Below are positions 14,801 to 57,397 of a stretch of 64,000 bases of DNA, piece by piece. The notes beneath the pieces are model-generated. The model searched no databases. It saw only the letters and a list, made by a program, of their open reading frames with translations, and was not told where the DNA came from. This stretch comes from Stylophora pistillata (taxonomy: Eukaryota). Position numbers and translations under genes: made by a program. Each line of letters begins with the position of its first letter. The first letter of the stretch is position 1. Location of the stretch: positions 94,282 to 158,281 of the forward strand of contig NW_019217890.1 in the NCBI RefSeq assembly GCF_002571385.2, in the 5' to 3' direction.

Positions 14801-17800
14801 TACTCTGCAGCTGGAAGACAAACTCCTTCTCTCCTTTTTGTTACCAGGTGCCTGTTCATATTACCTTTACCAACGAAATGGCCGATTTACAAGTCCAGGC
14901 CATCCCAACCGTTACTCAAATAGGCAGCATTGTACCTGGTTAATCGAGGTTCCTTATGGCCACTTCATATATCTACAATTTGGATCATTTCATCTTGAGG
15001 GTTGTTGTGACTGGGTTCAAATATTCGATGGGAGCTCAGCATACAGCTCTAGAATTACAAGTAAAAACGGCTATCAGCAACCTTGGGGAGTGTGTAGTAG
15101 TGGAAGGTTTCTGTTCGTGCAATTCACTACTGACGGGAGTGTTACGTATTCAGGCTTTTCAGCAACCTACCAAGCTGTACCACATGGTAAAGAAATATGT
15201 GTGTCTGCCTATCCCTTCATATTTTTTTTTTTTTTTTTTTGGAATAAATTAATTTGTATTCACTTGATTAACTTTGATGAATAAGAAAAGAAAAATGTAT
15301 GAAAGAAAACATTACGTGCTACCCAAACGTGCATTTGTGTCACCCATCTTTCAAATTGTACTGGATAATGTGTTGTAATTCGTCACCTCAAACGACTGCA
15401 AGATAGAGACATGGCCGACTGTCTGACTAAAGTTTTTGTAGAAATTTTTATTCATTGCGCGTTTCATTGAAGAAAAACACATCGGGCACCAATTCACAGG
15501 CTGAATGAAAGAATATCAAAGTTAACGCAAGCTTTAGCCTCGAGTTACTTTAAGAGACATTTTTACAGCGGACCCCACCCTACTGTTTAAAAATTCGTGA
15601 CCTTTCTCATTATCATGTCACTCTTTGACAGAGTACGATTTGTATGATGCACGATCCTCGCAATAGAGAGCGCTATTAATGTAATAGCGAAAATCAGACC
15701 TGAAAAAAAAAAAAACATGATTTGTCACAAATTACAAATTTTTTCCTTGAACTCAGCCTCCGGTGTCCACCAAGTCTATGCTTCAAGTGCTGTTGGATCG
15801 TGTTATGGAATTAGTTCGATACCCTACTTACAACAAACACGTGGTTAGTACGTTCAATAACTACTTGTAATATGCTGCAGTTTGATGAAATATATATTAG
15901 TCTTTAACATAAGAACTAAGCATTTAATCAGATATACTGCGCGAGAACGAGACTAAGGAGTACGATCCTACCTTACAGAATCTTTTTCGTAGCACATTTC
16001 AACTCCTTACTCAAATTTTACATATTACCGATTTAGTGTCCCTTTTAAGACTGTTTGACCACTTTAAACAGTCTTCATGTCGTGATAAAAGTGTAATCAA
16101 TACATATTTTAATTTCCTAAACGTAGGATTTTGTAGTTTTTATCACGTTATTCGTAAACGGAAATGTGAACGGAAACCACTGCACCTTGTATCGCATTCG
16201 TTGGAAACCCCGACGATTTTCGCGCTGACACTTACATAGGGAATACAAACTGATAGTGTGGGTGCTTGATCACAGCCAAACGGGAGAAAAATATCTCTGC
16301 AACTTTAGTTTTCCTTTTCTTTTGATGAAAAACTACAACCAAATTCGTCGATGAAATGAACTTCAGCGCAGAGCTTAATTGTCAATAACCTCAGATTAAA
16401 GTATGTAGTATATTGTAACATGTAAGAACAGTTACTAAACATGATGTGTTCGTTTAGATTCCTTAGCGATAACTCCGACGAGGTCATCTGCCTATATTCC
16501 ATGGACAGTTTCTGCTAATGGTATAGTTGTTTATACTCACCCAGTATTGTTGGATACATTGTAACAAATGGTATTCGGTATTCACGATTTAAAAATGTCT
16601 GTTGCTTTAAATTTTTGGCAGTATTTTTTGTTAACAGGAGCATTTTGCAAGAGTATCTTAAGAACGATTATAGCAACGTATTAACAAGAAAGCTTTGAAC
16701 ACCTTCGACCTATATGAGGATTCGTGGAAGCTGAATTTTTCTCAAAAAGGAGAACTTAATAAAAATACCGAGTTTGAACGTATCTAAGAAGCCTCAAGGG
16801 TCAAACAAACTCCGCTCGTTTTTAAGGCCTATTTAGGTTATGGATTTTTACTCTCCTAACATCCCTCTCTGTTCCCACGTACGCTCCAGTTTTCATTCGC
16901 GTTTAAACTGAAAAGAGTCATCTCTGCAAAAGGCCTATTTAGGTTATGGATTTTTACTCTCCTAACATCCCTCTTTGTTCCCACGTACGCTCCAGTTTTC
17001 ATTCGCGTTTAAACTGAAAAGAGTTATCTCTGCAAAACAAGGACCAACCGAAGATGGAAAGTATTTTTCCTTTTATCGTCATTAATTTTATTCCAGAGTG
17101 CACGAGTCACTACTTTTTGGAAGATTTTGGAAGATCAGTTAACTATGTTGGGAACAATGTCACATGCGACAGAGGTCTTTCCCATGGTTGGTACAGATTT
17201 CGTGGTGCAGCAGGAACTCAAATGCCCTCCTCCTGTGTGGGAATGAATCGTTGTGGAACGCATGCCCCAGGGTGGTTAAATGGTGCGCATCCCACCGTAG
17301 CTGACGGGATTGTCCGTGTCTCAGTGTGCTTCCACTGGAATTGGCGATGTTGTAGATGGTCTACGACCATCCGCGTGCGCAACTGCGGTGGGTTTTATGT
17401 ATACGAACTAGGATCACCGCCGTATTGTCATTTGCGTTACTGCGGAGGTAGGAAATTATCAGTTACTGAATACCTAAGTCACTAATTCCTAGTTTTTAAT
17501 GTTCGTGTTTACATAGCTGGTTAAATTCTGATGTGTTTACGGTAAGGTTTCCAACCATTTTTTTACAACTACTCACCCCAACTAATAACATTTGGTTTTG
17601 GAACTTGTGATGACATTATTTTGAGGTGTTAGACCTCGCGAAGGATGATATGAAAATATCTTAATTGTCCCTAATTAAGACAAAATAGAAAATGACTGAG
17701 AAACTAGAAAGACAGGAATAAAATAAAATGTATACCAATTCAACATCAAACCAAACTAAGCTGATCACCAAGAAAGAAAATTTAGATATTGCAAGGTGGA

Positions 17801-18050
17801 GATTCGCTGGTTTCGTATTTTCTGAACGTTTTCAGCAAGTACCGTACAGTCAACTCCAGTGATGCGTAAATCTCTTGGCTTGAACACATCGTCATACGCA
17901 AGAGCAAGTAAGTGTCTACATTGTTTAATTAAATGAACTATGAATTCATTACAATGACTGGAACTCAACGCGATCTGTCCCTAATTGAGACAAAATAGAA
18001 AATGACTGAGAAACTAGAAAGATAGGAATAAAATATTTTATTAAAAACTA

Positions 18051-18105
<55 letters not shown>

Positions 18106-18218
18106 CAGCCAATATACCATAATCTACAAATATGGCAAGCGTACGTTTCAGCTTAAGATTAAAAGGGAGCTAAAAATTTAATAAAACTTAATAATTTAAT
18201 TTAACGTTTTTAATAAAA

Positions 18219-18255
<37 letters not shown>

Positions 18256-18256
18256 T

Positions 18257-18330
<74 letters not shown>

Positions 18331-21300
18331 TTAAATGTATACCAATTTAACATCAAACCAAACTAAGCTGACCACCAAGAAAGAACATTTAGATATTGCA
18401 GAGATGGCGATTCGCTAGCTTCGTATTTTCTGAACGTTTTTAGCAAGTACCGTGCAGTCAACTCCAGTGATGAGTATTTCTCCTGGCTTGAACACATCGT
18501 CATACGCAGGAGCAAGTGAGTGTCTACATTGTTTAATTAAATGAACTATGAATTCATTACAATGATTGGAACTCAACGCGATCTGTTTGCTGACGATTAC
18601 ATCATGGTCGGTGTTTCTTTTTCTTTCCATTTTGTAAAAAAGAAAGCAGCAAACAAAAATAATTAATAGATGAGGAGGAGAACGTAGAAAAGTCCTGATT
18701 GATCAGTTTCTATAGACTCAGAAAAATGGAAACACTAAAAGTGATAGAACGACAAACTTACCAGAATCAATAGAAGGGTTTAATTCAATTGTTTTCGATC
18801 TTCTTTCTCCGTTCTACTTCACAGACTCATTGTACATAAAATCAACGGTTGCTATGCTAACGTCTGTCGCGTCCAGTACACCATTTGTACTACACCTACC
18901 CGCCAATTGCCAGCATGATTGTGTTAACAACTGGGGAAGCTATTACTGTACTTGCCGTCAAGGATACAGGTTGGAGGCGGATGGGAAAACATGTCAGGGT
19001 AAGTTTACACATCACCGACGGACTGCTTTCATATCTTGCAATGTCCACCGATAGCATACTGGTCTTAATTATGCCAAATAGAATGAAACGAAACCACAGG
19101 TATAAAAATCATCGTCATCACGTGAACAATAGTTGTAACGTACGTAACAGTACACCGAGAGACTTTAATTTCGCATACATTTTATCATAAGGCATCAAAA
19201 ACGGTGAGGGAAAGTGCGAAGAGTGACATTGTTTTTAGTTCCTTTGATCGCTTATTCGCTTACCTTGATGTCATCGTAACGTCGATTAGGTTGCTTTTAT
19301 TTGATGAAAGGATACATTTGATTAACCTTACAAAGGAAACAATTTCTGTGTTGCGCCAATACACGAAATACTTTGGCAAACCGCGATTTTTAAGTGGCGC
19401 GAAATTTAAACACACTGATAATATCTTGAAGTTAAAATTTTCGTCATAAAAAGTTAAAAATATGACGTTCATAGGATTTTTCGTGCGGAAATGCTCTCCT
19501 ACGGGAACACGTTTAACTGTAGTCACGTCTAAAAATTAAAAGGGGATTCTTGGGATTTTCCACAATGCACCGTTTTTGATTAACTCCTTTACATTTAGTT
19601 CTGTAATTTATAACAACTTTATTTGCATACAGTTGGAAGATCAAAAAAGTATAAATGCAAATAGGGTGCCAGCAGGGAAGAACTTAATCTTCATGTAAAG
19701 TTGACCCCCCAATAGAAATAAAAATTCTATATACATACTTAAAATATATACACTATGTTGTCATCGATAAAACTATAGCAATCTAAAATGTATAGATATA
19801 ACCAAATAATTAATTTAAGCCTGAGTACGAAACAGAATCCTTAATGAGCATGTTATATAGACGTCTCTTAAAGTTGCTAACACTGACTGCTTCAACGATA
19901 TCTTTCGGCAAAGAGTTCCACTCATCAATGTACCTGTGCCAAAATGAGTACTTAAGAATATATGTTCGTGCATAGGGTTTCCAAATTTTATATCTGTTGG
20001 TACATCTTGTGCGGCAAGAAGAAAACTTTAAATAATCATCTAGACGTACAACACAAAAGCCCTTGATATACTTAAAAAGTTGTGTCAGACTTAAAAGACT
20101 TCGACGGGTTTTGAGATCCATCCATCTTAGTTTCGACAATCTTTCGTCGTAAGTAATGTCCTTGCTAAGAATCCTCCTAGAGGCACTACGTTGAATCCGC
20201 TCTAGTTTATCTGACAATTGTTGTTGATGGGGATTCTAAGCAGGGCACGCATATTCAATTATCGGACGATATATACCCTATTTTTATAGCTTCAGAGCAT
20301 CTGCCAAAGGTGCGTTTAAGTAAGCTTTTGCAGCAACTGATAGAACATGGGATTTCCATGAAAGATCGCATGAAAGGGTTACACCAAGATGCTTGTGCGA
20401 GGAAACTTTCGTCAATGGAACCGAGTTAATGTTATAAGAACAGGTAGTTGCTCCCTCGATCTTGTAATTCTCATGAATTCACATTTGTCAATGTTTAAAT
20501 TCAGAGACCATGAACTGCACCAGCCATTCATTTGATTTAAGCCTTGTTGAACAGGAGTAGAAACAATTAATGTCAATAGAATCAGAGTTATACAGTAGCG
20601 TATCATCAGCCCCAAAATAGAGCCTTGAGGCACACCTGAGATGACATTTCCCCAATCGGAGAATGCATGCACCATCAATGACAACTCTCTACTTTCGATC
20701 ATAAAGGAAATCACTCAACCAGAGGAGAATATTTTCTTTGATACCAAAAAGTTGTAGCTTTGCCAAAAGAAGTTTGTGGGAAACAGAGTCGGCAAAGGCT
20801 TTAGCAAAGTCCAAGAAGACTACATCAATTTCTTTCTTCCAGAGACGTTTATCAGAGTTCAATCAGTTAGTTACCGTGCTTCTTCCAAATCTCACAAACC
20901 TTTTATGTCTTTATCAACCGACAGATATCAACGAATGCTTAACCCAAAATGGCGGCTGCACCCATGAGTGTGTGAACATCCCAGGAGGCCACTACTGCAA
21001 ATGCCCCGAGGGCGTTACAATGGGCTTTGATAACAAGACGTGTCATGGTATGTAAATTTTTGTAAAAGGAAAATTGCGCACAGATTCCTCTCATAGCTAT
21101 CTATAAGATTCTCTACATTGCTGTACTGCATCTTTATACATTACCATTTGGTACAGAAAAGTTTTCAGACAGAGTTCTATTAACTTTGTTGAAACTAACG
21201 GGGAGATAAGTATTTTTGAATAATTAAAACAGTGAAATGGCTTTCTCTGGCAGAAACTTCAATTGTGAATTAATATTTTTCGTTCTTTTCAGAACCTGGT

Positions 21301-23758
21301 ATTACAGTGAAATGCACTGATGAAGCCATGTTTATTTTTCTGGAGAGAAAATCTTTCCAGGGCTTTGATCCAAACAAGCTCACTCTGCTTTACCCGTCAT
21401 GCCGTGCCTCTTACAACGATTCCCACATATCCTTGCGAACGAGTCTCAACGACTGTGGAACCACACATAACGAAAGTGAGGACGCGATAACTTTCCACAA
21501 CAAAGTGCAGAGTGTCCAATCCTACTCCGGCAACATCATAACTCGGGAACAAAACGTGTCAATTCCTTTCTACTGCAGTTATGGACGTAAAGCCCAGCTT
21601 CGAAATCCAAGTTTCCGAATCTGGAAGAACTATTTCACAGCTTCGGAAGGTAAACTCTTACCAGGAAATGCTCATTTGATTTAATTTGTTTTAGGATAAG
21701 ACATTGACTCGATTATTAAGAGTTATCGCTCAGTTCAGTAATTTAAGGGAGTAATATTTAAGGAGCGGCATTCATTGAATCAGTCTTTGAAGAAAAACCC
21801 TTGGCTCGTCTCTTTGTTAACGAGATGGTACTCCTTTAGCCGTCACCTGACATTGTGGTGGAGTTTGACGACCTTTATTGCTTTCTGGGATCATCGTATA
21901 GTGTACTTACGAAGACAAAAAGGAAAAAAGTACTGAATGAGCTTTCCGCTTTTAGTTTTCGCTCAAAATTAATTGGATTTTCTGTCAATCTTTTTATTGT
22001 TCCCAACAACCACCAGAGTCTGGTGAGACTTGACATTTACAGATCTCATAGAAAGACCGCAAATTTTAATTTATTTTCATAGGTGGATATGGTAACTTCA
22101 CATTCACGATGGATCTATTCAAGACGGGCAGATATCTTACAACGTACAGCTATAATGACTATCCAATCACGGTCCATCTTCGGGATCGCTTGTTTCTTCA
22201 GTTAGCGGTCCGTTCATACCAGTCTAACTTGGTTCTCTTTGTCGACACCTGCAAGGCGACTCCCTCTCCTGATCCGTACTCAGTTCCTCAGTATATCTTC
22301 TTACAAAGAGGGTAAATATGTCGTGTTTTGTGAAACGCTTATCGAACAATGTTTCCTATAAATATTCGCTTTTTATGCAGTTTTCCCTTGAACGAACGAG
22401 TTGAACTACATGAGGCTAACTCAGTGTGTAAAGAATTTTTATCAGTACAAAATAGAATCAAATGTTTTTGAAGTCCATTTTCTTTTTGTTTTTAAACGAT
22501 TTTATTGGGCATATCAGATAAATATTTGAACAAGGCAAAAGTACAATAATACAATAACAAATAGAAAACAGAAGAGAAACTGAGATAAAACTGCACCCAA
22601 AAGGAAAGGCGCGAATGGGACGTAAAGTCCCATGCGAGGCGCCGCCCATTATGAATTAAAAAACACTATAAAATAGAAAATCACAATAATACAGAATAAA
22701 TAAATAAATCATTTCAACTGCCGAACAAAAAGTGCTAATTGGTGGAATGTTCGAATATTCGAGTACATAGTAATCAGCGGGAAATCAAGCCACCGAAAAA
22801 ATCTGTAAATTAAAATTTTTTGTCCGTGTAAGTTTTTCAAGGTGCAAAACTTTGGTTTCTAGTGGTTTACGTATCATCCCATCTACAAATTCATAATTAT
22901 AATTCTCTTTGCTTGGCTGCAGATGTAAGCTTGATGCTACCCTCAATTATTCGTACTCCATCAGCTCCAAACAGCGTTTTAGCATTCAAGCGTTTCGTTT
23001 TATTGAAGAACATCCAGTGGTACATCTTCACTGTGAAGTTCTGGCTTGCCACCGCAACACTGCCCGCTCCCGCTGCCTCCAGGGATGCTCCCGCTATCGT
23101 GGACGGAGAGACGAAGTTCCTGGTTCTGAGAGTACTCAGATGTACAAAATTTCGTCTGGACCAATCAAATTCCAAAAAGGGTCGAGCGGAACGAATAGAG
23201 AAAAAAAGAGCGAAGGTGAGCGAGGAAGTGGAGAGTCGTGGGTAACGATTTACTGAATAATTATGTGGAAAGTTTAGATGTCGATAGATACTTCAAACAT
23301 GTACTTGAATCGCTATCACGATAGTTAGATTGACCATGGAATCAGCTCGAAAGAATTGCCACCCTTTCTCAACTCGATACAGGTTGCCAAACACCACACA
23401 AACGTTAATTGACCGTATCAGATCTTTAAATAATTTACTGAAGCAACTGTGAAGTTACTAAACCCGAGTCACTTTTTTTTTTGTCATCCTTTTAGCTGAA
23501 ACTCAAACCAATATGGGGATCATTACAGTAGCGGCGGCATCCGGCGGAATTCTTCTCCTCCTGGTAATCATTTTGGTAATTGTCATCATTCGAATCAAGA
23601 AGCGTCTGAAGGGAGCTTTCGCAGATCGCAACAAAGTCTATGCCATGGAACAGTGTAGCAAATACGTCAAGCAAGAGAACAACAACTTGGGCTTCACTCA
23701 GGATGACGAACTGAACGAGATGGGAGACAAGTCGTTTATTATGAAACCGCTTGCTTAG
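2850..23758 (+). CDS. Large type I membrane CUB/D8C/EGF/zona pellucida (ZP) domain protein, uromodulin/OIT3/CUZD1-like, ~1508 aa, 24 exons
   Basis: Exons: 2850-2966 (signal peptide MFSSFILSFIVVTFSRQTTA then SHFRGGIITWKP), 7011-7267, 7762-8044, 8518-8801, 9295-9462, 9744-9787, 9919-10025, 10366-10672, 11308-11403 (DVNEC..RKKR), 11505-11549, 11725-11757, 12302-12640 (CUB), 13293-13379, 14848-15186 (CUB), 15757-15843, 17097-17447 (D8C: GWYRF..CGTHAPGWL..VRNCGGFYVY..LRYC), 17836-17907, 18444-18515, 18825-18998 (EGF C2-C6), 20925-21047 (cbEGF), 21293-21649 (ZP-N), 22083-22311 and 22923-23215 (ZP-C, RGRR cleavage site), 23496-23758 (TM plus tail). All introns are GT-AG and the phases join into one 4527-nt ORF. 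The small exons are the least certain. Confidence 0.88.
4067..5105 (-). mobile_element. Penelope-like retroelement fragment (mostly in an assembly gap) ending at a (TA)n microsatellite
   Basis: Minus strand 4885-5098 gives YEPLQSDPTSK..ARPGVAFGNIKTHKTGNPLR, resembling the Penelope RT N-terminal motif YGLPKIHK..PLRPI. The other side of the gap ends in (TA)n at 4068-4089. Confidence 0.7.
5211..5256 (+). ncRNA. Minimal type I hammerhead ribozyme (Penelope pLTR/retrozyme-type)
   Basis: ACTGCA-CTGATGA-GGCC-CAGAA-GGCC-GAA-ACAG-TA-CTGT-C-TGCAGT: 6-bp stem I, intact CUGAUGA and GAAA core, 4-bp stem II, palindromic stem III, GUC triplet. Predicted cleavage after C5250. Followed by (TA)n. Confidence 0.85.
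13403..13453. repeat. Perfect 23-bp inverted repeat with 5-nt loop
   Basis: ATTTGCTATTTACTCGCATAAGC-TATAG-GCTTATGCGAGTAAATAGCAAAT. Confidence 0.95.
13640..14140. mobile_element. GC-rich non-autonomous element ending in a ~140-bp imperfect palindrome
   Basis: TTATTGACTGAGT (13995) and ACTCAGTCAATAA (to 14135) enclose further inverted segments. The left boundary is approximate. Confidence 0.5.
16824..17035 (+). repeat. Tandem duplication, 2 x 106 bp
   Basis: AAGGCCTATTTAGGTTATGG...ATCTCTGCAA occurs twice with about 2 differences, just upstream of the D8C exon. Confidence 0.9.
17666..18585 (+). repeat. Recent tandem duplication of a ~310-bp unit containing a 72-nt Ser/Thr-rich mini-exon
   Basis: Units start TGTCCCTAATT(A/G)AGACAAAATAGAAAATG at ~17666 and ~17975 and are near-identical, introns included. 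The second unit carries a 297-bp insertion. Confidence 0.9.
18036..18332. mobile_element. Palindromic non-autonomous element inserted without target-site duplication
   Basis: Empty site in the upstream duplicate is GGAATAAAATA|AAATGTATACC. The filled site has the 297-bp insert at the bar. The insert has inverted pair TTTTATTAAAAAC/GTTTTTAATAAAA, then a ~115-bp hairpin AACAATTATTCC...GGAATAATTGTT. Confidence 0.85.
19580..20900 (-). mobile_element. Degenerate 5'-truncated CR1/L2-clade LINE in an intron of the ZP gene
   Basis: Minus-strand RT motifs GRSTVTN, IDVVFLDFAKAF, SGVPQGSILG, WSLNLNIDKC and the C-terminal LERIQRSASR..YDERL..SFWHRYIDEWNSLP. Internal deletions and stops; 3' boundary approximate. 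Confidence 0.85.
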
Positions 23759-43800: not shown

Positions 43801-45229
43801 AAAATCATCAAACAATGCCAACCGTACAAAAACATTACTAAGAAATGTAATTTATGTCTTTTTGAAAAATTCACGATATGCAAAAAGGAACTTTGCAGTC
43901 TAAACAAGCGAAATGGGCTAGCAAGTTCATGCCCCCATAGAAACAGATACCTCCCAAGAACTTCATAATAAAGTAACAATCTCCGATTCTCGGATAGGGA
44001 CGAATAACTGGAGGTCCCTCCTCCAGCAGGGTTGGGGTAGGAGACGTTAATTTCCCACACACGAGATTACTGTTTGATGGAATATCCTTTCCTGGGGTGG
44101 GATGGGTGGGAAGGTGAGATCGATAGACTCAGGTGGCTGCCAGAGGCGCCTGATATGCTGACGTCTGTTCTCAACCTTACACTGCGCTCGTATTTCAGCC
44201 TCTGGGCTGCAAGTGGTCAGATATAAACTATATTCATATTCATATATTCGATTATACATACCAGTCACCTGACTTATATGGAAAAGAAGCGTTGTTTTCA
44301 TATCTCCTAGCAACCGTATTCCAGCTTTTACAGCCAGTCATTGTAATTTACCGGTCAATCGTTGAAATTACCTGATGGGTGTGGTCATAGTTTCGTCCCT
44401 ACGAAACAGAGCTGTCGTAATAAAACGATGAACTTCCTCTAAAGTCTTGAACTAGTTTGTTATAATTACCAATGCTCCTCCAAGAGTTGAGCACTCTTTG
44501 AAATACATTCAAATCAAGTGCTTAACGCACGAAACTCAGAGTTGCAGCGAATCATGTGTGTTTCCTTCTAGTCACTTAATGTTATATATATATATATTTA
44601 TAAATCAAGATAGACGTCATCTTAAAGCTTTATCCTAGTAGTTTAAGTCCTCAAAGTTTCTTTCTTGGCCCGCCATAAGAAGTGCGTCAATGTTGAAGAG
44701 AGTTTGGGCTATCGTGACATTAAATGTGATGCGATCCGTTGACGGCTGTCACGCAAGAGGTCATCACATCTCGCACCCTCTCAGACATATCAAGCTTGAC
44801 TTTATCGATCAGTGGGAGCTTTCCTCCATAGACGGGTAACTTTAACAGGTATCATCATTTTATCGTGTTCCTTGCACCAAATTCTTCTCGCCCCAAATTG
44901 TGTGTAACGTACAATTCTCGCTTGAAGAAACCGAAGGAGGAGTAGAGCATTAAAAGCAAGCTATAGCCCTGCAAGACTACTGAAATGATGCCTTCTCCGT
45001 TTTCTAGAAATTTCATCATCCTCGTCATCTGGGTTGAATTACATTTTACAGAAATCTACTGGAAATAGAGATAAGAGAAGAGCTAGTTGGCAGACATTTC
45101 ACCCTTGGAGCTTCAAACCACCCCCTTCCTAAAAAAAAACAATAACGAAACACGAAACAAAACAAAACAAAACAAAACAGAAGAAACAAACAAACAAACA
45201 AAAACCAGGGTAGATCTGAGTCTATTTAA

Positions 45230-45712
45230 GATTTCCATTCCTTTTTCTCAGTTTCTAAGACTTCGTCGTTTATGTAGTGATGACTCTGATTTCCACCACA
45301 AATCAGAGTCAATGTGCCAGTTTTTCGATAAACATGGTTACCCTGTTTCTGTCGTTCAAGCGGGTTACCACCGCGCCCAACTTATTGATCGACATTCAGC
45401 ACTACAAACATCGCATAAGGAAGATTCCAACGGCATTCCATTCACTCTCATGTTTCACCCTCACAACCACTCAGCCAGCTAAATTCATCATTCTTAAAAA
45501 CTTTAAATTACTTCAAAACGATCCAGAGACAAGCACTATCTTTTCGCAGCCCTCCGCTCGTTTCATTCAAACGCGACAAAAACATAGGCAATTTTTTGGT
45601 CAGAAGTTCTTTTCAGACTAATGACCAACCAGGCACTTTTAAATGCGCTCGTGCACGATGCAAAACGTGTCCTTTCATTCACAACACTGATAAAATATCG
45701 GGACCTAAACGN
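45230..45712 (+). mobile_element. Penelope-like retroelement internal fragment (RT thumb to linker)
   Basis: SIPFSQFLRLRRLCSDDSDF..FFDKHGYP..IPFTLMFHP, then frameshifted ILKNFKLLQNDPET and a C..C..C segment. Confidence 0.8.
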
Positions 45713-46634
45713 NNGACATGATAAGAAAAGACAAATCTGCATGAAACGAAACCACTTTTTCAATGATAGATGGCTAAGTTTTAAGTTTGTATACATTTTC
45801 TCAGATCTGAAAACTAACACCACGTCGCGTAGAAGTGATACAGAACTTATCCAAAAAAGTTTAGATTAAATTAAGATGTTTTAACTTATAAGAGAAAACG
45901 GTGGAAAATTAACATGCCTCTGATGTTTTTATCCCTCAGGAATAAAAATTAATCCTCAAACACAACTCCTTTAACTGAAGAATAATTCTTTTAATCATAG
46001 TTTTGTCTTGTTTGTTTACTTAAGGCGAAAAAACTCAAATTATCGAACTGTCACATTCCACACTCGTAGTTCACAATTCAGGGGGAATCAACGATTTAGA
46101 ATGCAACGGCGTATATATCTTTAGCAGCAAGAAAATTTCCTTGAGGCGGTGACAAGTTTCGAAAATGGTCACGCCTAGGTCCTCAGTCAATCGTAAATTC
46201 CTTGTGGTCTGTTTTATGGATAACTTATGACGATGTGGCTGACCAGCTAACATAGAAAACCCCATACAAAGAACAAACTATTACTGCGGGGAAAGGAATA
46301 CGAAATACCCTTATTTACAATTTCTTTTGAAATCAATAATGAAATGACATCGCTATAGTAAAATTTGTGATATTTCCAGGTTTGCCAGTCGCATCAAGAT
46401 CTGAGAGACATTCATACAGTCATACAATCGTACACCTCTTTACTTATTTTCTTTCGATCTATAAATATCTTCATTTGATAATCTCCCGAATTTTCATCAT
46501 CCATCTATTTACTTGTCTATATTGAAAGAGAAAACATACAAAAAAATCTAACGAGTCGAGCTGAAAGGTCATACAAAGATTGCTCCATCGCTTCAAAAAA
46601 AATCTCACAAAAAAGACTCCTAACATCTAACCTG

Positions 46635-49536
46635 CTAATAATCAGTCAGCTTCAGTGCTGTTACAATGGTAACAATTGAAGTGAAACTATATCGTGAGCG
46701 CCAGTTGTTTCCTTTACTTTCTGACACGGCCACAAGGCTACTTCTGCTTGTTTTGAAAAACCACACGTCACCTCGATATACCAAAGTCGACTTTACTACA
46801 GAATCTACGCGCCAGAAGTATTTGGTCAGAGGCTCCAGAGTTGTCCTCAGATGTAGTACATTCCCACCATCTACAACCGATCCAAGGTACTCGGGCGAGT
46901 AAAGTGAAGCGCTGTTAACCCTCTCCTTATCAGTTCCAAAATAAACACGATGAACAGACGTTCCGTATCCATTCAGCCACATAAGAGTGTCCCTCCGATC
47001 TGGTCTTATCTTCACACTATGGTCAGGGGGGACAGGCGTACTAGCTTTGAATAGCTGCCGTCCCGGTATCCAGTAGTTTGTCAACTCGGGGTGATAGCTG
47101 TACGGTCCAACATTGTGCCCTATGTACGTGGAATTGGATAAAGGCCGAAAGTCGAAGTTATCCGGATCGACCAGTTGATCTCTAACATTTCCAATTACGT
47201 TGAACTTCACAACACTCCCGGCCAAAGGGTACAACTCTCCTCCGTGTTTGCCACCGTTTGCCTTATCAGCTGCGTTAAACATGACTACAGTTCCGTTGTT
47301 GATCGGCACAGGGTTTTCGCGAACATAACGTAAAACACACAAGGAACATTTATCACCTTGGTGGTCACCGTCTTTTTCGTTTCTTTTATCAAACACAAGG
47401 TTCTGCTGCACTGTGTGATTGTCTCCTTTTACCATCATACCGTTACATTTCCATACCACTTTACTGTGCATTGTTCCATTACGTCCAACCGGCAGAGGGG
47501 GTTGTCCGTCAAATCTCACACCGTACTTAACACTAGAATGCACCCAGTTTTGCTGCAGAATTGCATGCGTTTGCGATTTGATTTGTAATTGAACGTGGCT
47601 GCCGTCATGCTGAAAGGTTATCAAAAAACAAAGTGAATGAATGCCGAAAGGTAGTATAGACTCGAAATTCATCCATCCTTGCCTTATGACAAATAGGGGA
47701 CTCAACTCAAGAGCTTCAAGATTGCAGAATTGCATAAAAGGGGTTTATGTTTCCAAATCACGACAGCGACTATCGCCCTCGGCGATCGCAGATCCTGCCC
47801 AATGAAAACCAAAATTTTGACCACGGCTAATGGCTTTGTGAAACAAGTTTCAAGTACAGTGAAAATACGACGTTCTTCACACGTCAAAAGTATCCAGCTG
47901 CTTAGAATTTGAATGAAATTAATCGTTTCTTAAAATACTTATTAGACTTCTTTCATCGGAATAAAATGTCTTAAGGACCAATACCAATTAAAGCTAGTTT
48001 ATTGTGGCGTCAAACTCAAACCACAGGTGACGCCAGTTTCGAAAATGCAACCCCTCCTATATATGGTGGTAGTGGGCGAGCGCGGTTACTTCGAATTCCG
48101 AGCCACCCCCTCCCCCCTTGAATATAGACAGGTGATAGAGATAATGATCTCGTTCTCTATGACGATCTGAATTTCACAACGAAAATACTTCTGGCCAAGA
48201 AAAGAGGAGTAGTTACCTGTATAATACCCCAGCATTGATGGTGCAAATGATTAAGCCGCACTGTGGGCCGCAGACCAGGTCTTATGCCACTGCTGGCTCC
48301 GTTGTACCGCAAGGTGTTTCTCACAAAAATGTCGCCAATCCCATTAGAAATAACTGTGCCGAGCCCTCCACTCCTGTAAACCATGTTTGCTGCAGTCCAG
48401 TCGTTGTACTCGAACAAGTTGTTTTCCAGAGTCACATCCAAACCGCTAAACTCTAAGGCAGCACCATCGGTACCCAAGAAAGTGTTGTTGAAAACCGTCA
48501 AAGTATTTAAAGTAATTTTCTTTGTATTCGCGTTCATTTTAGTCCATTCAGCTGGAGCAGTGTCGCCAAGCATTCGTCGCGTATACGACGGGTAGTTGAA
48601 GATGATTGAGTGGAAAGTCAAGTTATTCACTGTATTCTCTTCATCTATTGTTGAGGCCCACAGCGTTGTTCCAAAGAACTTCAGCGTTTGGAAAACCACG
48701 TGACTACAATTGGTAATGTTAAATGCGTACGTCATCACTTTACCTCTGACGTCACGTCCCTCAGGGGATTTACCATCTCCCGTCATTACAAATACTGTTC
48801 TAGAGGCTTTGTCGTAAAACCACTCCTCGGGTTGGTCAAGAAATTCCAGCTTGTCTTCAAGAAAATATTGATTGGCTCCAGGAAAGAACTTGATGCGACC
48901 AAATGTGTCCCTGTAAGTGAATGATGCATTCCCGGGATTGTGACTTTGAACTACGGCTGTGAAGGTATTAAAACTCCCAATGTTAAGAACTGCCATAGCA
49001 CCCGTCGCGTTGAGACCGCTTCCGGCCAAGTCCTTTGAGCCATCATCCACCATAACACCTCGTGTGGACAAGGTGGACGACTTCGCCCAGTAGCTGGCGT
49101 TGAATACCGTTTTGTTGGACCACAGTGCGTTTGGCCAGCGAGCATTTGTCATCATCTCACCATCGATAAATAACTGCCAGATCTCTTGGTCTACGACAGC
49201 CTTAAAAGCGCCACTGTCATCTTTCACCCACCCTCCCTTAGGCTGTAGTTGAACGGTACCATCGATGATGGGATATTCGTCCTCGATTCCACTTATGATA
49301 ATTGGTTTTTCAGGGGTACCGTGTTTGTTCGTGACAGTCACGCGCTCGTGGTAACCCCCTCTGGGAATAATGCATTCATCTCCCGGGGCAGTAAGCTGGT
49401 CAACACATGATTGAATGGTTGTAAATTTAGACCGAATGGTGGTAAATGTGAAAGAACCTTCGTAAGAGCAGCCAATAAACAGACTACTCATACAGATAAA
49501 AAATAGTAACGAATTCTGACTTGTATAACGGGCCAT
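46635..49536 (-). CDS. Secreted bacterial-like right-handed beta-helix (pectin lyase-like fold) protein with C-terminal FN3-like module, ~764 aa, 2 coding exons
   Basis: Exons 49536-48217 and 47609-46635 (phase 0, ..WGIIQ|HDGSHVQ..). Hydrophobic signal peptide; TIQSCVDQLTAPGDECIIPRGGYHERV..GTPEKPIII; QLFIDGEMMTNARWPN; YFLEDKLEFLDQPEEWFYD; Asn/Gly beta-helix-like repeats; DFRPLSNS; HRVYFG..LEPLTKYFWRVD..GDVWFFKT. Acceptor ttacag just before the ATG and a candidate donor near 50253 imply a 5' UTR intron. Confidence 0.82.
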
Positions 49537-51771
49537 GTTTTCCTGTAAGAAAACGAAAATATTGGACTGTAGTGCAATCATATAAAGTTAATTAACAACA
49601 ATTGTGAGCATTCCCTTTTAACAGTTTTACTATAAAAATTAATCATCTGGCTTGGTAAAACAAATTTTTTGAAAAGGGAGGGATATACAACGTTTTTACC
49701 TCTAAAATCGCTTAAAATTATCTCAGTGAAAAGCCTGTTTTGACCAAACTCCTGGATACTTGGTAAAAGTAATCACCGAACAGAGTCAGTGTAATGCCGA
49801 ATTACGACTCATTGTGCAATTGTGCTCATGGTTACATCATCATCACGTTTCAAAATCAGTATAAATGCCTAAACAAGATATACACTTCTAAGTAGATATC
49901 TCCCTCGTCAAACCAACTCTCTAAGGAATAAAATCGAATCGGTTTTTTTCTCAATTAGAGAATGATTCCTCGATTTTGTTCTAACATGGCCATCGCTCCT
50001 TCTTACACAATGTAAAGAGAAGTTACCGGCAGAAAATGAAAATAAAACACTCATCACTGATTAAAAGCTTTAGTTTCTAAATGGCCATGTACCCTAATGT
50101 AAATATCTATCCATATTTTGAAATCTTGTGATAAGTTGCAGATCCGTGTTGTGTGACATCTGAAGAGGTACTGCCGTATCAAAAGCCTACGTCGATTTTC
50201 CCTGGAAAGAAAGCTCCCATCGAGAATGGTCGACCTGGATTACAGATTCTTACCTCTGTATCATTGTTCGTCAATAGGATCAACGATGGAACCGGTCATG
50301 AATGATGAACTGTCGCCTAAGTTCCATGCCCGTCCAGAGGTCTGAGAATGAGTGGGTCCGAATCGGTAACCAGGGTCACGCGGTAATGAACGATTTCATC
50401 ACTGTTTCAGGGAATAATTCGAACCATTGTACAAGTGCATGTATGTGCAAATTGTCTGCTTCTGACAATTTTTTTCCTCTTTTTGTGATTCATCAGTTAA
50501 AAGCTGAGTTGGATCAGACCTATAAAATAACCTGCAATCTTCTTTTTTGTTTAAAAAAGCTAGCCACCTTTGGGGATAAAGCACTGAATCAAAAGCATTA
50601 CCTTATGCACATGTGAGCACTGGAGTAGTGGGATATAGAAAAGACAGTGAGAACAGAACAAGGAGCAAGATGCTGATTGAAAATTCCAGTTTGTGTCAAT
50701 ATACCATAACACAAAATTTAAATTCATGAGCAAATTTGACTCCATACTAAGTCTCAAACTACAAACACATTCAATTTCTTGCTGTTCACCCTGGGTTTCT
50801 ATTAGACTCAAAGCCACCTACAACAGTTTAACTTAAAAAAAAATTTTCTCCAGTCATCAAACCCTAGCAGTCTAAGTTTCTGATAAATAGCTATTTGAAG
50901 TAAGTGTAAAGGTACTCAGAAAATAGTATAATATTTATAGCTCTTGCTGCATTGTTTAAATATCGAGTTGCCCTAGTCCAGGCTTACAAAATGTCCTAAT
51001 AATTAATAATTAAAAAACTACAGTAAAAAATGATGGATTATGGATGACAGCATAACGGCATGACTAAAATTTGATATCCATACTAGCTACATACAAGAGT
51101 TAAAAAACAACATATTTTGCCTTGTTATCATTCCCAAGTTATTCAAAGGAACCATAATGATAAAAGTGAATTTCTTTGGAATTCATTTCTAATCCAAAAT
51201 TATTCTAACAAGTAAGACTTCAATGATGATCAACAGCTTCAAGGCTTCTAAAAAGTAATGGTCTATACATGAAGCTTGAAGTAATGGCTCTTTCAGAAAT
51301 TAATGAAGTAACCACTCTCTGTTTGATGGAAGACTATGTCATAACTGGTTATAATCACCCTGGGTGAGGGCAAAATAAAACTGGAGCTCTAATTTTCAAT
51401 TTCAAGCAGTCACCCTGATAATAACCTGAGATATTATACTGAAGCTATAACTCTCCTTGCGCTTATTGAATGTTGCTGAAAAACCCTGTCTGCTTTATCT
51501 CAGGAATCACTCGACAATAGTCACTTTGCCTTTAGGAAATGATTGTTAATTAGAACAAAAATTATTGAAAATTCTGTTTGCATATGAAATGGTTCAAGTC
51601 AGGAGATAATGTGGGCCAATTCAAAATTTGTGAATGATTACACCTACGATTGTTCATTACTTGGAAGTTGTGATCTGCAGTTAGTGATAAAAAAAAAATT
51701 GACAGCCACAAAAAAGCATATCCTTGTTTACACCACCAATGAATTCATGTATGTAGGTGAAAACACAACTG

Positions 51772-51952
51772 CAGGGCTTGACACTAACAGTAGCCAACTA
51801 GCCACAAACTAGTAAAAATTCAGATTTGGCTAGTGCTTTTCGATTTCCACTGGCCAGTTTGGCTAGTAAACAAAACTGAAATTGTTGTAACATCTAAGTT
51901 GTCACTAGTCACTGCATGGGCTAGTAAGTTAAAAAGTTAGTGTTGAGCCCTG
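51772..51952. mobile_element. MITE (hAT-like ends)
   Basis: CAGGGCTTGACACTAAC ... GTTAGTGTTGAGCCCTG. Confidence 0.6.
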
Positions 51953-52129
51953 AACCATGTGCATAACAGTCCATGATAAACTTCAAAAGACATACAGCTT
52001 TAAGAAACATCAAATGTAAAAGGATTAAAGGAACAGAGTGGAGCAGTTTTCAACTGACCATACACAGTAATCCTGAATTGTCTTGTTTTTACTTCACTTC
52101 ACTCTCTGAATGGTCCAGATACCACTCAC

Positions 52130-52349
52130 AATAGGCCATTTTACAGTTGTGTACTTAGTTGCCAAGCCTTTGATTCAGAGTGAGGCCGAAGGTGACCTTG
52201 TTGTGATAGAGACCTGTATCTACTTGGTATGATAACAAAGTGATTTACATTTGAAAGGCAGCAAGATTTGTATCATAACAAGGTCAACCCTAACCTCACT
52301 CCCACTCAAAGGCTTGGCAACCAAGCACCCAACTGTAAAATGGACTATT
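52130..52349. mobile_element. Fold-back MITE
   Basis: AATAGGCCATTTTACAGTTG..TTGCCAAGCCTTTGA ... TCAAAGGCTTGGCAA..CAACTGTAAAATGGACTATT. Confidence 0.75.
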
Positions 52350-52637: not shown

Positions 52638-53489
52638 TCAGAGGTCTTTGCTTTCCTGAAGATACGTTTTCTTGTAATTTGTTCCATCTCCTGGCAAAGC
52701 TGAACTTACAGTGGGCCAGATCCAAGCTAAATACCACCTCTCTCCAAAGACGTCTAAGAAATTTTGCTTCCAACCAAGGTCGTATTCTTTTTTTTTCTTC
52801 TTTCTCTCCTACGAAGTTTGACCGCGGGAAATAATTCCAATTTGAAAGAGCAGCAAGCCACTAAAGAGAATGAACGCAAAAATGGAAAGCCCCGTCATAA
52901 AGGAAACGAAAAATCCGTAAAGAGTTGTGTACCCTAACATCCACATTAGGATTGGAGTCACCATGGTAAGCACTGTTGCAAAACTGAAACTGCCAATTTC
53001 CGACGTCACATATTCATGATGAAAAATATTGGCATAAAGAGCTCCTAACCAAAGGTACAACGCTAGAAACATGTAATAGCGATAATTCCTGAAGCCAACA
53101 CATTTCCCTGCGAAAACACAATGGTGATCTCGCTTCAAAACACATTCATTGCAGACTTGACAATGATGTGCTCTTGGAGGTGAATTCAGCTGACAGAAAG
53201 GACAATACGACCAACCGGGCTTCAATACAGACGGCATTCCCAGATTTTTTCCTGTTGTATCCGTTGTGATCAAAAAGAAAAAGTTGGCGAACACGTTCAA
53301 CCACAAGAAAAACCCGGAAAACACGTGTAAATACCACCATGTAGAGAACGCTTCGTGGTAGAGCGGTAGCACAACAAAAAGTTCGAAGAGTGCTATCACC
53401 CAAAGCATAACGATCATGAATAAGAATGCTACATAATCGGAGGATTTCTGAGGAATGTACGCTTGCAACCAGCCTTTTTCCCTCTCCAT
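52638..53489 (-). CDS. ZDHHC24: DHHC palmitoyltransferase, ZDHHC24-like, single coding exon, containing an in-frame TAG at 52811-52809
   Basis: CPFCQLNSPPRAHHCQVCNECVLKRDHHCVFAGKCVGFRNYRYY plus 4-5 TM segments. After RGQTS* the same frame continues ERKKKKKEYDLGWKQNFLDVFGERWYLAWIWPTVSSALPGDG.. to TGA at 52640-52638. Confidence 0.85.
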
Positions 53490-54062
53490 TATCGCCACGG
53501 ATGTACAAATAAATATAAATTTTCAACTCGACGCTCAGCTCAAGCGAGGGAAAAATTAACGCCCGGGCGTCCCCCGGGAAGAGTACTGAGGTATTCAGCG
53601 GACACGCGCCTAAGGCTAAATGTTCTATGTAAGTGTCACAGAAAACTCAACGATGGAATTGAAAAATGACGTAAAATGTTTCCCGCGCGAAATGTAACTA
53701 TCACTAGTGAGACTATTGATGACTCACGTCCTGTAAAGTCCCACAACAGCCTGCTTTACGGGAAGATTCGTGCACAGTGATGTAGTTTATCTTTGTCCAA
53801 TTATTGAAAAAAGAAAAGGACAACAAGCATGAGAGAATGGAAAATGAATAATGGGATAATAAGAGATGAGATAAAATAAAATATGAGTAGTGTAGATGGG
53901 TCCAGATGCCGAATCTGCAACCCCTCTCATGGGAGGGGGATAAGATACGTGGGCATATAGAGAGGGGGAAGTAAATGCAATCATACAAAAGAAATAAGAA
54001 TATATATAAAAAAAATGCTTTGCGTTTTATTAGAATTTTTTCAATTATTTTCAATGTAAAAA

Positions 54063-55631
54063 TTAATTGATGTGTTTTGTAACCACTGAATCCATCCTTC
54101 GGTAATCAGGCCACTGTTTCTGAGTATCATAGCCAAGAGTTCTCATAACAGGAGCAATTCTGTTGGTACGTTCCAATAAAGATGATGAAAGTCTTTCAGA
54201 CCATTTGTACAGTGCTTTCAAGTTTACAGCTTCTTTCACTTGATCGGTTGACTTTTCAAGGCTGAAAATTATGAAACAAAGAAACAAGCGTAGGCATAGA
54301 TACTATATACGAAAAAGAAGAAAACTCTATGATTTTTTCTTTGCCCTTTAATTGCAACTCAGGAAGAGGGGCACACCTTCAGTCTTCCAGTAAAACTATG
54401 GCAAGCAACACTCCTGCCAGAGAGCTCTGATTCGTGTCCAATGGCCCCTTGGTCACTAAAACGCGAAAGGAATTTGAGTGGTACGCACGTACAATGATTA
54501 AGATAACAGCATTGGGAAGGCTTCGAATGCCTACTCACCCCCTCTCGCGATACCAAAATGAGCCGGGATCTGAACGAGTTCGCATAACTCAGGAAAAGTC
54601 GAATCTTCCTGCGCAATGATTCTTGCGTAATTAGTAACTTTTCACGGTTAGAATCGCAAGAGTCGAAAAGGATATCGAAAAAATGTAAACGAGGATTTTC
54701 ACGATTGCCTGAATCATCTACGTGCATGATTTCACTGACCTACACATTGCATGCAATATTCGGTGTTTTTGTCCGATCAAACAATGGCTGCTTTTTACCT
54801 TGATAGGATGACACCTCCTGATTTCCCTATCATAGTTTCATGATGGATCACCACGTCATTCCAAGGAACGTCCAAAAATTCTAGGACCATTTCCATGCTC
54901 TCTGCAGGGAACAGCACCAGATGTTCATAAGGAATTCTCAAACACCTTGAATGACCTAAAGCTACGCACTGAGCGTTCATCTCACCTGTGGCATCATTCC
55001 ATGTTCGCAATAAAATTTCTGGACGATGATTGTTGACGCCTCGAATAACAACTCCTCTCTCCATTATGGAGTGGACAACAGCGCGTCCGTCTCTTACCAT
55101 GAAAACAAATTTGGATTTAGGAAATATTCTGGCTAGATAGCTAAGATTCCTGAAAGTTAAAGGATCGTTGTTGCACAGTCTTGGCGCGGGATCGCCATGT
55201 TTAGCAATGATTTCTCCTATGAGCGCGGCCACTGCGGAATCCAACAGCTCTTGAGTCACACCAGCTTCCTCTCTTCGTTGCTTTTCCCGCTCGCTGAAAA
55301 GGCTGAATATCTTTGGAATACCCACAAGGATTTTCGGTATCACCCTTGTCTCCTGCCCGCATCTGATTTTAGGATGCGCATCCAGCATGGCTCTCATGAG
55401 AGTGGTCCCACTTCGCGGAAAGCCACCGACGAAAATAAGAGGAGTAGAACGGTCCACGTGATGTTGTAATGGAGGATGACCATTATCTACTGTTGATACT
55501 GTGTGGACGTCCTTGTTTTCTTCATGTTTACAGGACCTTGACAACAGCCTTAACAAGAAAATGGTCATGAGCGATGAAAGGCCGCACGCGACAGCGAGAA
55601 ATTTCCAAAGTTTCCGTTGTGACAAGTACAT
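54063..55631 (-). CDS. TPST: Protein-tyrosine (tyrosylprotein) sulfotransferase, type II Golgi membrane protein, 2 exons
   Basis: Exons 55631-54799 and 54261-54063. N-terminal TM, PLIFVGGFPRSGTTLMRAMLDAHP (5'-PSB), RCGQETRVIP, MVRDGRAVVHS (3'-PB), YEHLVL, EKSTDQV, IAPVMRTLGYD. Confidence 0.92.
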
Positions 55632-57397
55632 GTTAGCAGTAATTCTAATATCAAACGTTTCGATGCCATAAACGTAATCTTGAGAAGTTTGCAACAGTGG
55701 ATTTGAAAGCTTACCACTTTAGCACAGTATATTTTAATTAGTCGACCTTTGACAGTGTTGAAACGCCAGCGACTATGTTCCTTCTTCTCAAATGATTTCA
55801 ATGGATTCTTTTTCAACCGGGTCAATGCATTGAAGCCGAACTGGTGGACGAGACAATGACAAGTTTCAAACCATGCGCTGAGTCTGGCTACACTTTCAAC
55901 TGAAAGAAACGGTTCTGTGATTTCGATTCGTTCAAAATTTTCGATGGAATACACGCAAACTCAAGAGTTCCAGTTCAGATGATTTCAAAGGGAACCTTGC
56001 TACCGCAGCGGATTTCAGTTGGGTGACCTTTGGCAGTGTTGAAATCTTCACGATTATTATCTGACTTCTCAAATTAATTAAATTTTCTTCGAGCGTCGTT
56101 CTTCAACAAAGCGCCGTCGTTTATAGGAAACCCGCAAACACCTGTCGCTACCCGATCCACGGCATCATCGAACCTTTAATTTGTTTTAAGACATTTGTGG
56201 TATGTTTATAGGTTTCCGTAAATATCATTATACTTCCCAGCTGGATACACGTTGCCTTAAATTTGAAACCTCAGCTGTTGCTTGGTCACAAACTGAGAAC
56301 TGGTTTGCTAAGACAATAGGCAACAGGTAAAGACATTGAACACAACCAAAACATACAAAAAACTACACTTGCACCCGCAGACTAAATTTTATTGGCCAAT
56401 CTCTTCACCTCTCAAGTGAAACAGGCCACATGATTTTAAGCCAATGTCGGTGCACTTCACACCAGTGGAATCAAGTGTTCTAATTGGTGCCTTTGAGTAT
56501 CGCTCCCGGTCCCCGAGCCAATTTCTTGACACAGTCACATACAATAGCTTTGACAAAGCAGTTTAATCTACAAGTACTAAAATTATTATAGAAATAAACT
56601 ATTTCAATCAAAATACACTACTATTATGCAAGTATACCGTTAAAAAAATTCTGTTCATAATTTATAACGTTTATCGTTAATAATGGTTTTCTGCTCACTG
56701 AAGTTAAGAGATAATTAAATTCATCTTTCCTCGCTTTATCTTCTTACGTTAATATTTCAATAATACTGATTTTATGTGCGACTATAAAATTAACTATGAA
56801 ACAACTCCTTGATTCTGATCTCAGAAAAATGTACAGTAAATACATCTGGCACAAGCAAATGGAATCAAGATCATCTCCAACTATACAAAATATCATAAAT
56901 AATGTTTCAAAAATCAATTTTGTTTGTTATAGGGCTGTAAAAATGGAATGTAAATGAAAGTTAAAAGCTTATAGCATTTAAAAATAATAAAAAAATTGCA
57001 CAGGGTGCTACATTCGGCAATCCGTTTGCTTAATAAGTATATTAACTTTGGAGCTTGCATAAGATTGGTAATAACAGCCACTGATAAATTTTGTCATATA
57101 ATTATATATATCCATATACTTTTTTTCCCTATCTTCTTGCCATGCTTTGATACGCGCTTTGTTGTGTGTTGCTGACCAGTGGGATTTCCAACAGCAGTGC
57201 AGCGAGTGATGTATTACAAAGATTCAACTACATCCACAACAGCTACTGGCGAGTAGAATGGAAAGGGAAACATATCGTTATCGGAGTCCAGGTTATTGAA
57301 GACATTCGGAAATGTTACCAATATGTTCAGGTGGTCGAAGCTTGCCGTAACTTGCAGCTCCTTAGTCAACTCGAAAAAGGGCAGATTGGCCTTTAAA

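Follow-up and report, generated by a model that had tools for sequence, protein, structure and literature searches.

Fucose-containing sulfated polysaccharides of brown algae and diatoms, the diatom fucans among them (PMC7896085), are described as resistant to degradation, as a marine carbon sink and as being broken down by specialist bacteria (PMC7896085, PMC11685898, PMC13668718). Fucoidan loci are defined by sulfatases together with GH29, GH95 and GH141 enzymes (PMC11685898, PMC13668718). D523 and D564 are reported to be essential in the GH141 enzyme BT1002 (PMC12786026; PMC5593877), and fucoidan-active GH141*6 proteins are characterized by the signatures xHQxWxxxD, xDGx and xRxDx (PMC12786026). 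Fucoidanase activities have also been recorded from invertebrates (Lambis, Patinopecten, Littorina and sea urchin), and are left unclassified in a review (PMC11943901). Here we analyse a 64,000-nt stretch of the genome of the coral Stylophora pistillata (the window, in which all coordinates are given), whose minus strand holds a gene for a protein of 764 aa. A reading made from the letters alone (the sequence-only reading) had taken its product for a secreted, bacterial-type beta-helix protein acquired by horizontal transfer. The explanation that we favour, with about an even chance of being right, is a secreted GH141-like endo-hydrolase that cleaves sulfated, fucose-rich glycans and whose gene probably came from marine bacteria well before corals existed.

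We modelled the protein with AlphaFold2 on a 93-sequence alignment, starting from P0001, a database protein labelled Stylophora pistillata that is identical over most of the length and differs only at the N terminus. The model (predicted local distance difference test (pLDDT) score 92.6) predicts a GH141-like right-handed parallel beta-helix that is interrupted by an insertion domain and followed at the C terminus by an FN3-type domain. The best Foldseek match was GH141 BT1002 (5mqp; E 3.8e-16), and the VIA comparison with 5mqp gave Z 28.7 and a root mean square deviation (rmsd) of 2.5 Å over 446 aligned residues; the beta-helix with an insertion domain that marks GH141 is seen in both the model and this match. 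A profile of 148 family sequences had 9rx2 (1.7e-23), 5mqp (1.9e-19) and the xylosidase 3vst (3.7e-18) as its top Protein Data Bank matches, with PL6 lyases at 3e-7 or weaker and over the first coils only. The carbohydrate-active beta-helix proposed by the sequence-only reading is thus supported, and all five motifs that it quoted occur in the translation, with ARWPN and YFLE..LD.P.EW sitting in the insertion domain. Nothing in Pfam or NCBIfam matched the coral protein above cut-off: GH141_M matched at aa 220–249 with 17.8 bits, under its cut-off of 27, and had no match in the coral genome, whereas a few homologues do pass. Family-profile scores were about 400 or more for near-complete members and at most 200 for the next relatives. 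Because the protein falls below the Pfam threshold and belongs to a discrete family, we did not file it as GH141; this looks like an apparently unnamed family next to GH141, and the coral protein is predicted to work like GH141.

The residues of the predicted active site are strongly conserved among 148 homologues, including K468 (94%), K501 (95%) and H505 (93%) as well as the acidic residues and Arg472 listed in the table. In profile alignments D442 pairs with the Asp of YDVAG in 5mqp and with that of DGNG in 9rx2; it stands opposite 5mqp chain residue 528, which would be BT1002 D523 if the numbering is offset by 5. Two of the three GH141*6 signatures, xDGx and xRxDx, are present. HHQCW at aa 433–437, considered as a candidate for the HQxW signature, lies elsewhere and was rejected as positional chance. 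In the mechanism that we propose, the polymer would lie along the beta-helix groove, R321, K468, R472, K501 and H505 would bind its sulfate or carboxylate groups, and D442 and D474 would serve as acid/base and nucleophile in the way proposed for GH141. Fucosidases and sulfatases of the coral itself would then complete the breakdown; GH29 matches are present in the coral genome. The enzyme would probably serve to digest or clear algal and diatom exudates and particles at a gut or body surface.

The same fold and residues bear on two other possibilities. The protein might be a beta-helix polysaccharide lyase resembling PL6, PL9 or FdlA, in which calcium or substrate would be held by D379, D442 and D474. 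Either K468 and R472 or K501 and H505 would then cleave a sulfated glycan that contains uronic acid (fucoglucuronomannan or alginate, for example) by beta-elimination. PL6 structures are level with 5mqp in Z, conservation of Lys, Arg and His is strong, one fucoidan lyase is known to be a beta-helix (PMC9410043), and several bacterial homologues carry CBM96. Because the sequence profile and the insertion domain favour GH141, both Asp positions match GH141 motifs and no lyase family occurs among the bacterial neighbours scanned with Pfam, we consider a lyase rather improbable. It is also possible that the beta-helix and FN3 scaffold is a non-catalytic glycan-binding or adhesion protein, since beta-helix adhesins exist (PfbA, Z 23.6) and the FN3-type domain and a possible glycosylphosphatidylinositol (GPI) anchor would suit one. 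Near-invariant acidic and basic residues from bacteria to corals look like an active site, however, and make this highly unlikely.

To narrow the substrate of the favoured GH141-like hydrolase, we turned to its bacterial homologues. Full-length ones are about 31–36% identical to the coral protein, and some have type IX secretion system (T9SS) tails or CBM96, an alginate-binding module found in 6 of 51 proteins scanned. From a metagenome scan we took the best 80 of 402 matches, which make up 79 loci, scanned 208 neighbour entries (57, 102 and 49, partly overlapping) with Pfam or NCBIfam, and went on to search every open reading frame (ORF) with the sulfatases and fucosidases confirmed in this way as seeds. 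Loci were collapsed at 75% identity and groups with at least three other ORFs were kept; three groups taken as eukaryote-like (L058/L071, L065 and L069) and nine with fewer than three other ORFs were left out, and L024, which is ended by a contig edge, was counted as short form. Sulfatases were found in 10 of 12 groups of the long form, whose members have the FN3-type domain like the coral protein, compared with 2 of 16 short or cut groups (Fisher p 0.0003, the groups not being independent), and GH29/GH95 fucosidases in 7 of 12 compared with 0 of 16 (Fisher p 0.0007, with the same dependence). GH29/GH95 were the commonest hydrolase neighbours. The family is present in two or three copies at several loci, and one locus (L080) also has a 9rx2-like GH141. 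A copy on a plasmid of the Fusobacteria ZRK30 adjoins sulfatases, a sulfatase maturase, a sugar ABC transporter and fucose isomerase. Given that long-form bacterial loci are rich in sulfatases and GH29/GH95, we infer a substrate that is probably sulfated and fucose-rich, narrowing what the sequence-only reading had left as unknown.

A GH141-like hydrolase could also act on another sulfated glycan, such as the animal's own mucus or matrix glycans, glycans of the symbiont surface or a sulfated galactan. GH141 is reported to span fucosidase, xylanase and endo-fucanase activities (PMC12786026), the ZRK30 locus also has galactitol/tagatose pathway genes and L063 has a tagatose aldolase subunit, and a role at the surface is hinted at by the possible membrane anchor, which only 2 of the 93 eukaryote-side proteins have. 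We regard this as unlikely, as GH29/GH95 are the commonest hydrolase neighbours and the largest named expansion is in krill (13 clusters), particle feeders without algal symbionts.

Several observations nevertheless weigh against an endo-hydrolase of sulfated, fucose-rich glycans. The VIA comparison with PL6 lyases gave Z 28.4 over 342 aligned residues, and the conserved Lys, Arg and His could serve a lyase. D474 lies opposite 5mqp chain residue 559 and not at the expected D564 position, so its match as second catalytic residue rests on 9rx2 and the RxD motif. HQxWxxxD does not occur at the equivalent place, where the coral protein reads YPSYTRRMLG... Two of the 12 long-form groups are without sulfatases, and the context evidence as a whole comes from bacteria at about one-third identity, in groups that are not phylogenetically independent.

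Bacterial members of the short form (P0183; L039, L047, L062 and L101) are without the FN3-type domain and without sulfatase context, and in one of them a fusion adds two Cu/Zn superoxide dismutase domains. With 33 family-profile matches, all distant, a Clostridia genome bin of 2.6 Mb (G001; L008 and L021–L023) is possibly that of a specialist polysaccharide degrader. A pattern scan of prokaryote genomes that started from the coral protein returned 2 weak Clostridia matches only, and 0 of 401 genomes of the phylum of that Clostridia genome matched at 1e-60, a result that says nothing on other phyla.

The gene is real, transcribed and spliced in the coral. Its first coding exon (1320 nt) is separated from the second by a 607-nt GT..AG intron, and together they encode 764 aa plus a stop, as the sequence-only reading had it. 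Among eight runs compared, RNA contigs of X1, X4 and X8, from three studies, have the coding intron spliced out, and those of X1 and X8 also lack the 5′ untranslated region (UTR) intron that had been called probable; X1 is recorded as polyA RNA, and X4 and X8 were taken as RNA by guess. Contigs of X2 end near the splice junction and show no joint, and in X23 and X24, of which about 2% of the raw reads were used, coverage is confined to the gene's 3′ end. X15 and X16, from one study and taken as DNA, gave unspliced contigs across the locus at a depth like that of flanking genes, and an X16 contig (46829–51800) joins the gene to the 3′ end of the next host transcript. Because of this host-linked contig, the flank-like depth and the spliced RNA, the gene is not a contaminant; the spliced transcripts and the host linkage whose absence had been named as grounds for doubt are both present.

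The RNA contigs also bear on the start of the protein. In NCBI model P0001 (750 aa) translation begins at the 50264 ATG, another acceptor is used and the signal peptide is lost. We disfavour that N terminus because the RNA contigs back the acceptor at 49542, that is, the 764-aa model; the probable orthologues P0002–P0004 begin at the same Met as this model. Three upstream ATGs (50264, 50299 and 50327, minus strand) lie in or near the 5′ UTR exon, those at 50264 and 50299 inside its RNA-covered part, and the one at 50264 opens a 21-codon out-of-frame upstream ORF that overlaps the true start and could lower translation.

To ask where the family came from, we examined its distribution. Named homologues were found in the corals Stylophora, Oculina (6 clusters) and Desmophyllum, the jellyfish Sanderia, the hydrozoans Clytia and Hydractinia, the sponges Sycon and Amphimedon (two classes), krill, the choanoflagellate Acanthoeca and the diplonemid Lacrimia; no named vertebrate, insect, plant, fungus, mollusc or echinoderm was among the matches listed, which were mostly unnamed and took in the best 150 of 467 strong representative ones. 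The Acanthoeca and Lacrimia records are transcriptomes in which contamination is conceivable, yet they group with eukaryote-side sequences. The statement that the motifs are not of animals is therefore not supported, and the broad eukaryotic distribution that would have spoken against transfer is found in part, in animals, a choanoflagellate and a diplonemid. We then built a maximum-likelihood tree of 84 sequences and 658 columns (LG+F+G4 without site mixture), for which a FastTree of 199 sequences served only to choose sequences; 33 of the 84 failed the composition test. All 46 eukaryote-labelled tips fell in one split (Shimodaira–Hasegawa-like approximate likelihood ratio test (SH-aLRT) 74.5, ultrafast bootstrap (UFBoot) 95; 99.5/100 including the unplaced P0296). 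The non-circular part of this result is that 14 of 14 named eukaryotes lie inside the group and 10 of 10 independently bacterial sequences outside it. Approximately unbiased (AU) tests, with constrained trees searched less (12 iterations) than the free tree, rejected separate acquisition by anthozoans (p=3e-5) and by cnidarians (p=9e-6), but not animal monophyly (p=0.16).

These data suggest an old acquisition, probably, and not a recent transfer into corals. As the outgroup sister sequences and the solved GH141 relatives are all bacterial, an ancient bacterial origin of the family is likely, although nesting within bacteria is not statistically required. The horizontal acquisition proposed by the sequence-only reading thus stands as a likely bacterial origin, but not as a domestication at the level of corals or cnidarians. 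A recent bacterial transfer into corals or cnidarians, or a contaminant, would fit the few introns and the bacterial homologues that span the whole length, but is extremely unlikely given the AU results, the splicing in three studies, the X16 contig at neighbour-like depth and the greater identity of the coral protein to krill and sponge copies (about 37–42%) than to bacteria.

The direction and depth of the transfer are less firmly placed, and here too the evidence is not all on the side of an acquisition from bacteria. Only 14 of the 46 tips are named; the other 32 took their labels from an earlier tree or from similarity, a partly circular procedure. Eukaryotes are nested in bacteria in the best tree, but support for this is weak (39/66 and 85/48) and the AU test does not reject bacterial monophyly (p=0.52). 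There may instead have been no transfer near the animal base, the gene having been inherited from early eukaryotes with wide loss or passed among eukaryotes. In the best tree the diplonemid groups with the choanoflagellate among the eukaryotes, and the sponges of the two classes are separated from each other; with the result for bacterial monophyly, this would suit such a history. The all-bacterial outgroup sisters and solved GH141 relatives speak against it, and animal monophyly is not rejected either, so we consider it somewhat unlikely.

Introns and paralogues are consistent with the early bacterial acquisition that we favour. The coral genome has two paralogues with introns at other positions, and an Amphimedon-group copy is intronless, in DNA of low coding density; the pattern fits an intron-poor ancestor with later intron gain. 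Paralogue C416 (L010:4640) has an in-frame TAA just past the RFD motif with the coding sequence intact beyond, which accounts for a database model of 483 aa; a null allele, a young pseudogene and an assembly error are all possible explanations. The third paralogue (L011, L012; C50:160000-169900) has about six exons and intact catalytic motifs.

The two ends of the protein bear on secretion and anchoring. The N terminus has a hydrophobic stretch (Kyte–Doolittle 11-mer 2.5 at residues 11–21) and, with the Met common to the probable orthologues, agrees with the signal peptide of the sequence-only reading, which is predicted here from hydropathy. In the C-terminal tail, which is disordered in the model, Ser makes up 8 of 24 residues; a hydrophobic run of 13 residues (11-mer 2.08) follows and ends in K-L-T-D-Y. 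The Ser-rich and hydrophobic segments are thus as described, and the GPI signal read into them is plausible but weak, given the modest hydropathy and the charged end; we consider an anchor possible. Orthologue P0014 has a stronger hydrophobic tail (11-mer 2.75). Among 93 eukaryote-side proteins with a recognizable last motif (108 examined), 4 have tails of at least 15 residues, and hydrophobic tails are found only in the coral protein and P0014. A GPI anchor would on this evidence have been added late, within a single subgroup of corals. The separate model of aa 619–729 had a best fold match with Z 9.2 and rmsd 2.7 over 93 aligned residues, in a search whose top rows were mostly FN3, a common fold; ESM Atlas matches to this domain were all below 0.9.

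Features of the gene in the 64,000-nt window
Feature	Positions	Strand	Evidence
5′ UTR exon, RNA-covered part	50254..50316	-	X1 (30 nt), X8 (63 nt) contigs
5′ UTR intron, 711 nt, GT..AG	49543..50253	-	skipped in X1, X8
Coding exon 1, aa 1-440: signal peptide (predicted), initial coils of the beta-helix, insertion domain, mid beta-helix	48217..49536	-	
Coding intron between Gln440 and His441, phase 0	47610..48216	-	skipped in X1, X4, X8
Coding exon 2, aa 441-764 + stop	46635..47609	-	
3′ UTR, at least to 46007	46007..46634	-	contigs X1, X4, X2; raw reads X23, X24
Predicted signal peptide, ~aa 1-25	49462..49536	-	hydropathy, start common to probable orthologues
GH141-type insertion domain, ~aa 110-265, limits approximate	48742..49209	-	weak Pfam, 5mqp/9rx2 profile, model
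Asp379, 97% of 148 homologues	48400..48402	-	
Asp442, predicted catalytic, xDGx motif	47604..47606	-	99% of 148; alignment to 5mqp, 9rx2
Arg472-Phe-Asp474, xRxDx motif; Asp474 predicted second catalytic	47508..47516	-	100%, 99% of 148; aligns with 9rx2 GIRTD
C-terminal FN3-type beta-sandwich, aa 619-729	46743..47075	-	separate model pLDDT 81.5, fold match
Ser-rich spacer + hydrophobic tail, aa 728-764, possible GPI signal	46638..46748	-	hydropathy; pLDDT <50

The neighbourhood had been called exon-fragmented, which overstates the case, as the next two genes hold open frames of 237 and 307 aa. They belong to the DHHC palmitoyltransferase and sulfotransferase families (52809–55718, minus strand; Pfam), and the sulfotransferase-family gene has a spliced 537-nt intron at 54262–54798. 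A sulfotransferase gene beside an enzyme predicted to act on a sulfated glycan is probably there by chance. A very high-copy repeat (summed depth >100,000) that resembles a small non-autonomous element occupies 51772–52349, within the transcribed 3′ region of the DHHC palmitoyltransferase gene. Two fragments, at 45087–45721 and 32930–33697, may be retroelement endonuclease tails, which they resemble, and a multi-exon gene at 7700–21700 (plus strand) has exons judged by eye to be CUB-like and ZP-like.

On a wider scale we tentatively suggest, as a possibility less likely than not, that an endo-fucanase family of their own is present in sponges, cnidarians, krill and choanoflagellates, having entered once from marine bacteria before animals arose and expanded in particle feeders. 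If so, marine animals, and not specialist bacteria alone, would start the breakdown of fucoidan-type carbon, and the invertebrate fucoidanases that still lack a class might belong to this family. Conserved and expressed in animals, with predicted catalytic residues and with bacterial relatives in a fucan-locus setting, the family offers a concrete gene to work from, the 13 krill clusters included; in corals it would point to an enzyme of the host for algal exudates or mucus-like glycans. Our search, which left most subscription papers and supplements outside it, found no publication on the family in animals or on 9rx2; the main text of the krill genome paper contains none of the terms sought, and its supplements may list the expansion.

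Compared with described systems, the coral protein is like GH141 BT1002 (5mqp) and the xylanase Xyn141E in its beta-helix and insertion domain, but shares only about 14–18% identity with them and has an added FN3-type domain and basic residues around the site. With the GH141*6 endo-fucanases Wf141_1, Wf141_2 and Wf141_4 and 9rx2-type proteins, its family has xDGx and xRxDx in common. Those enzymes lie in sulfatase- and fucosidase-rich loci, sometimes beside bacterial members of the coral family, which differs in being without an equivalent HQxWxxxD and in being present in eukaryotes; a 9rx2-like neighbour is 18% identical to the family in profile alignment. The PL6 lyases (chondroitinase B and AlyGC) and FdlA resemble the coral protein in beta-helix fold, at similar Z, and in conserved Lys and Arg; for PL6 there is no insertion-domain match and sequence likeness is confined to the first coils, and the fucoidan lyase FdlA is absent among the fold matches listed. 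The invertebrate fucoidanases come from molluscs and echinoderms, yet no named mollusc or echinoderm member is among the matches listed; what they do, an animal-associated cleavage of fucoidan, is the activity predicted for the coral family.

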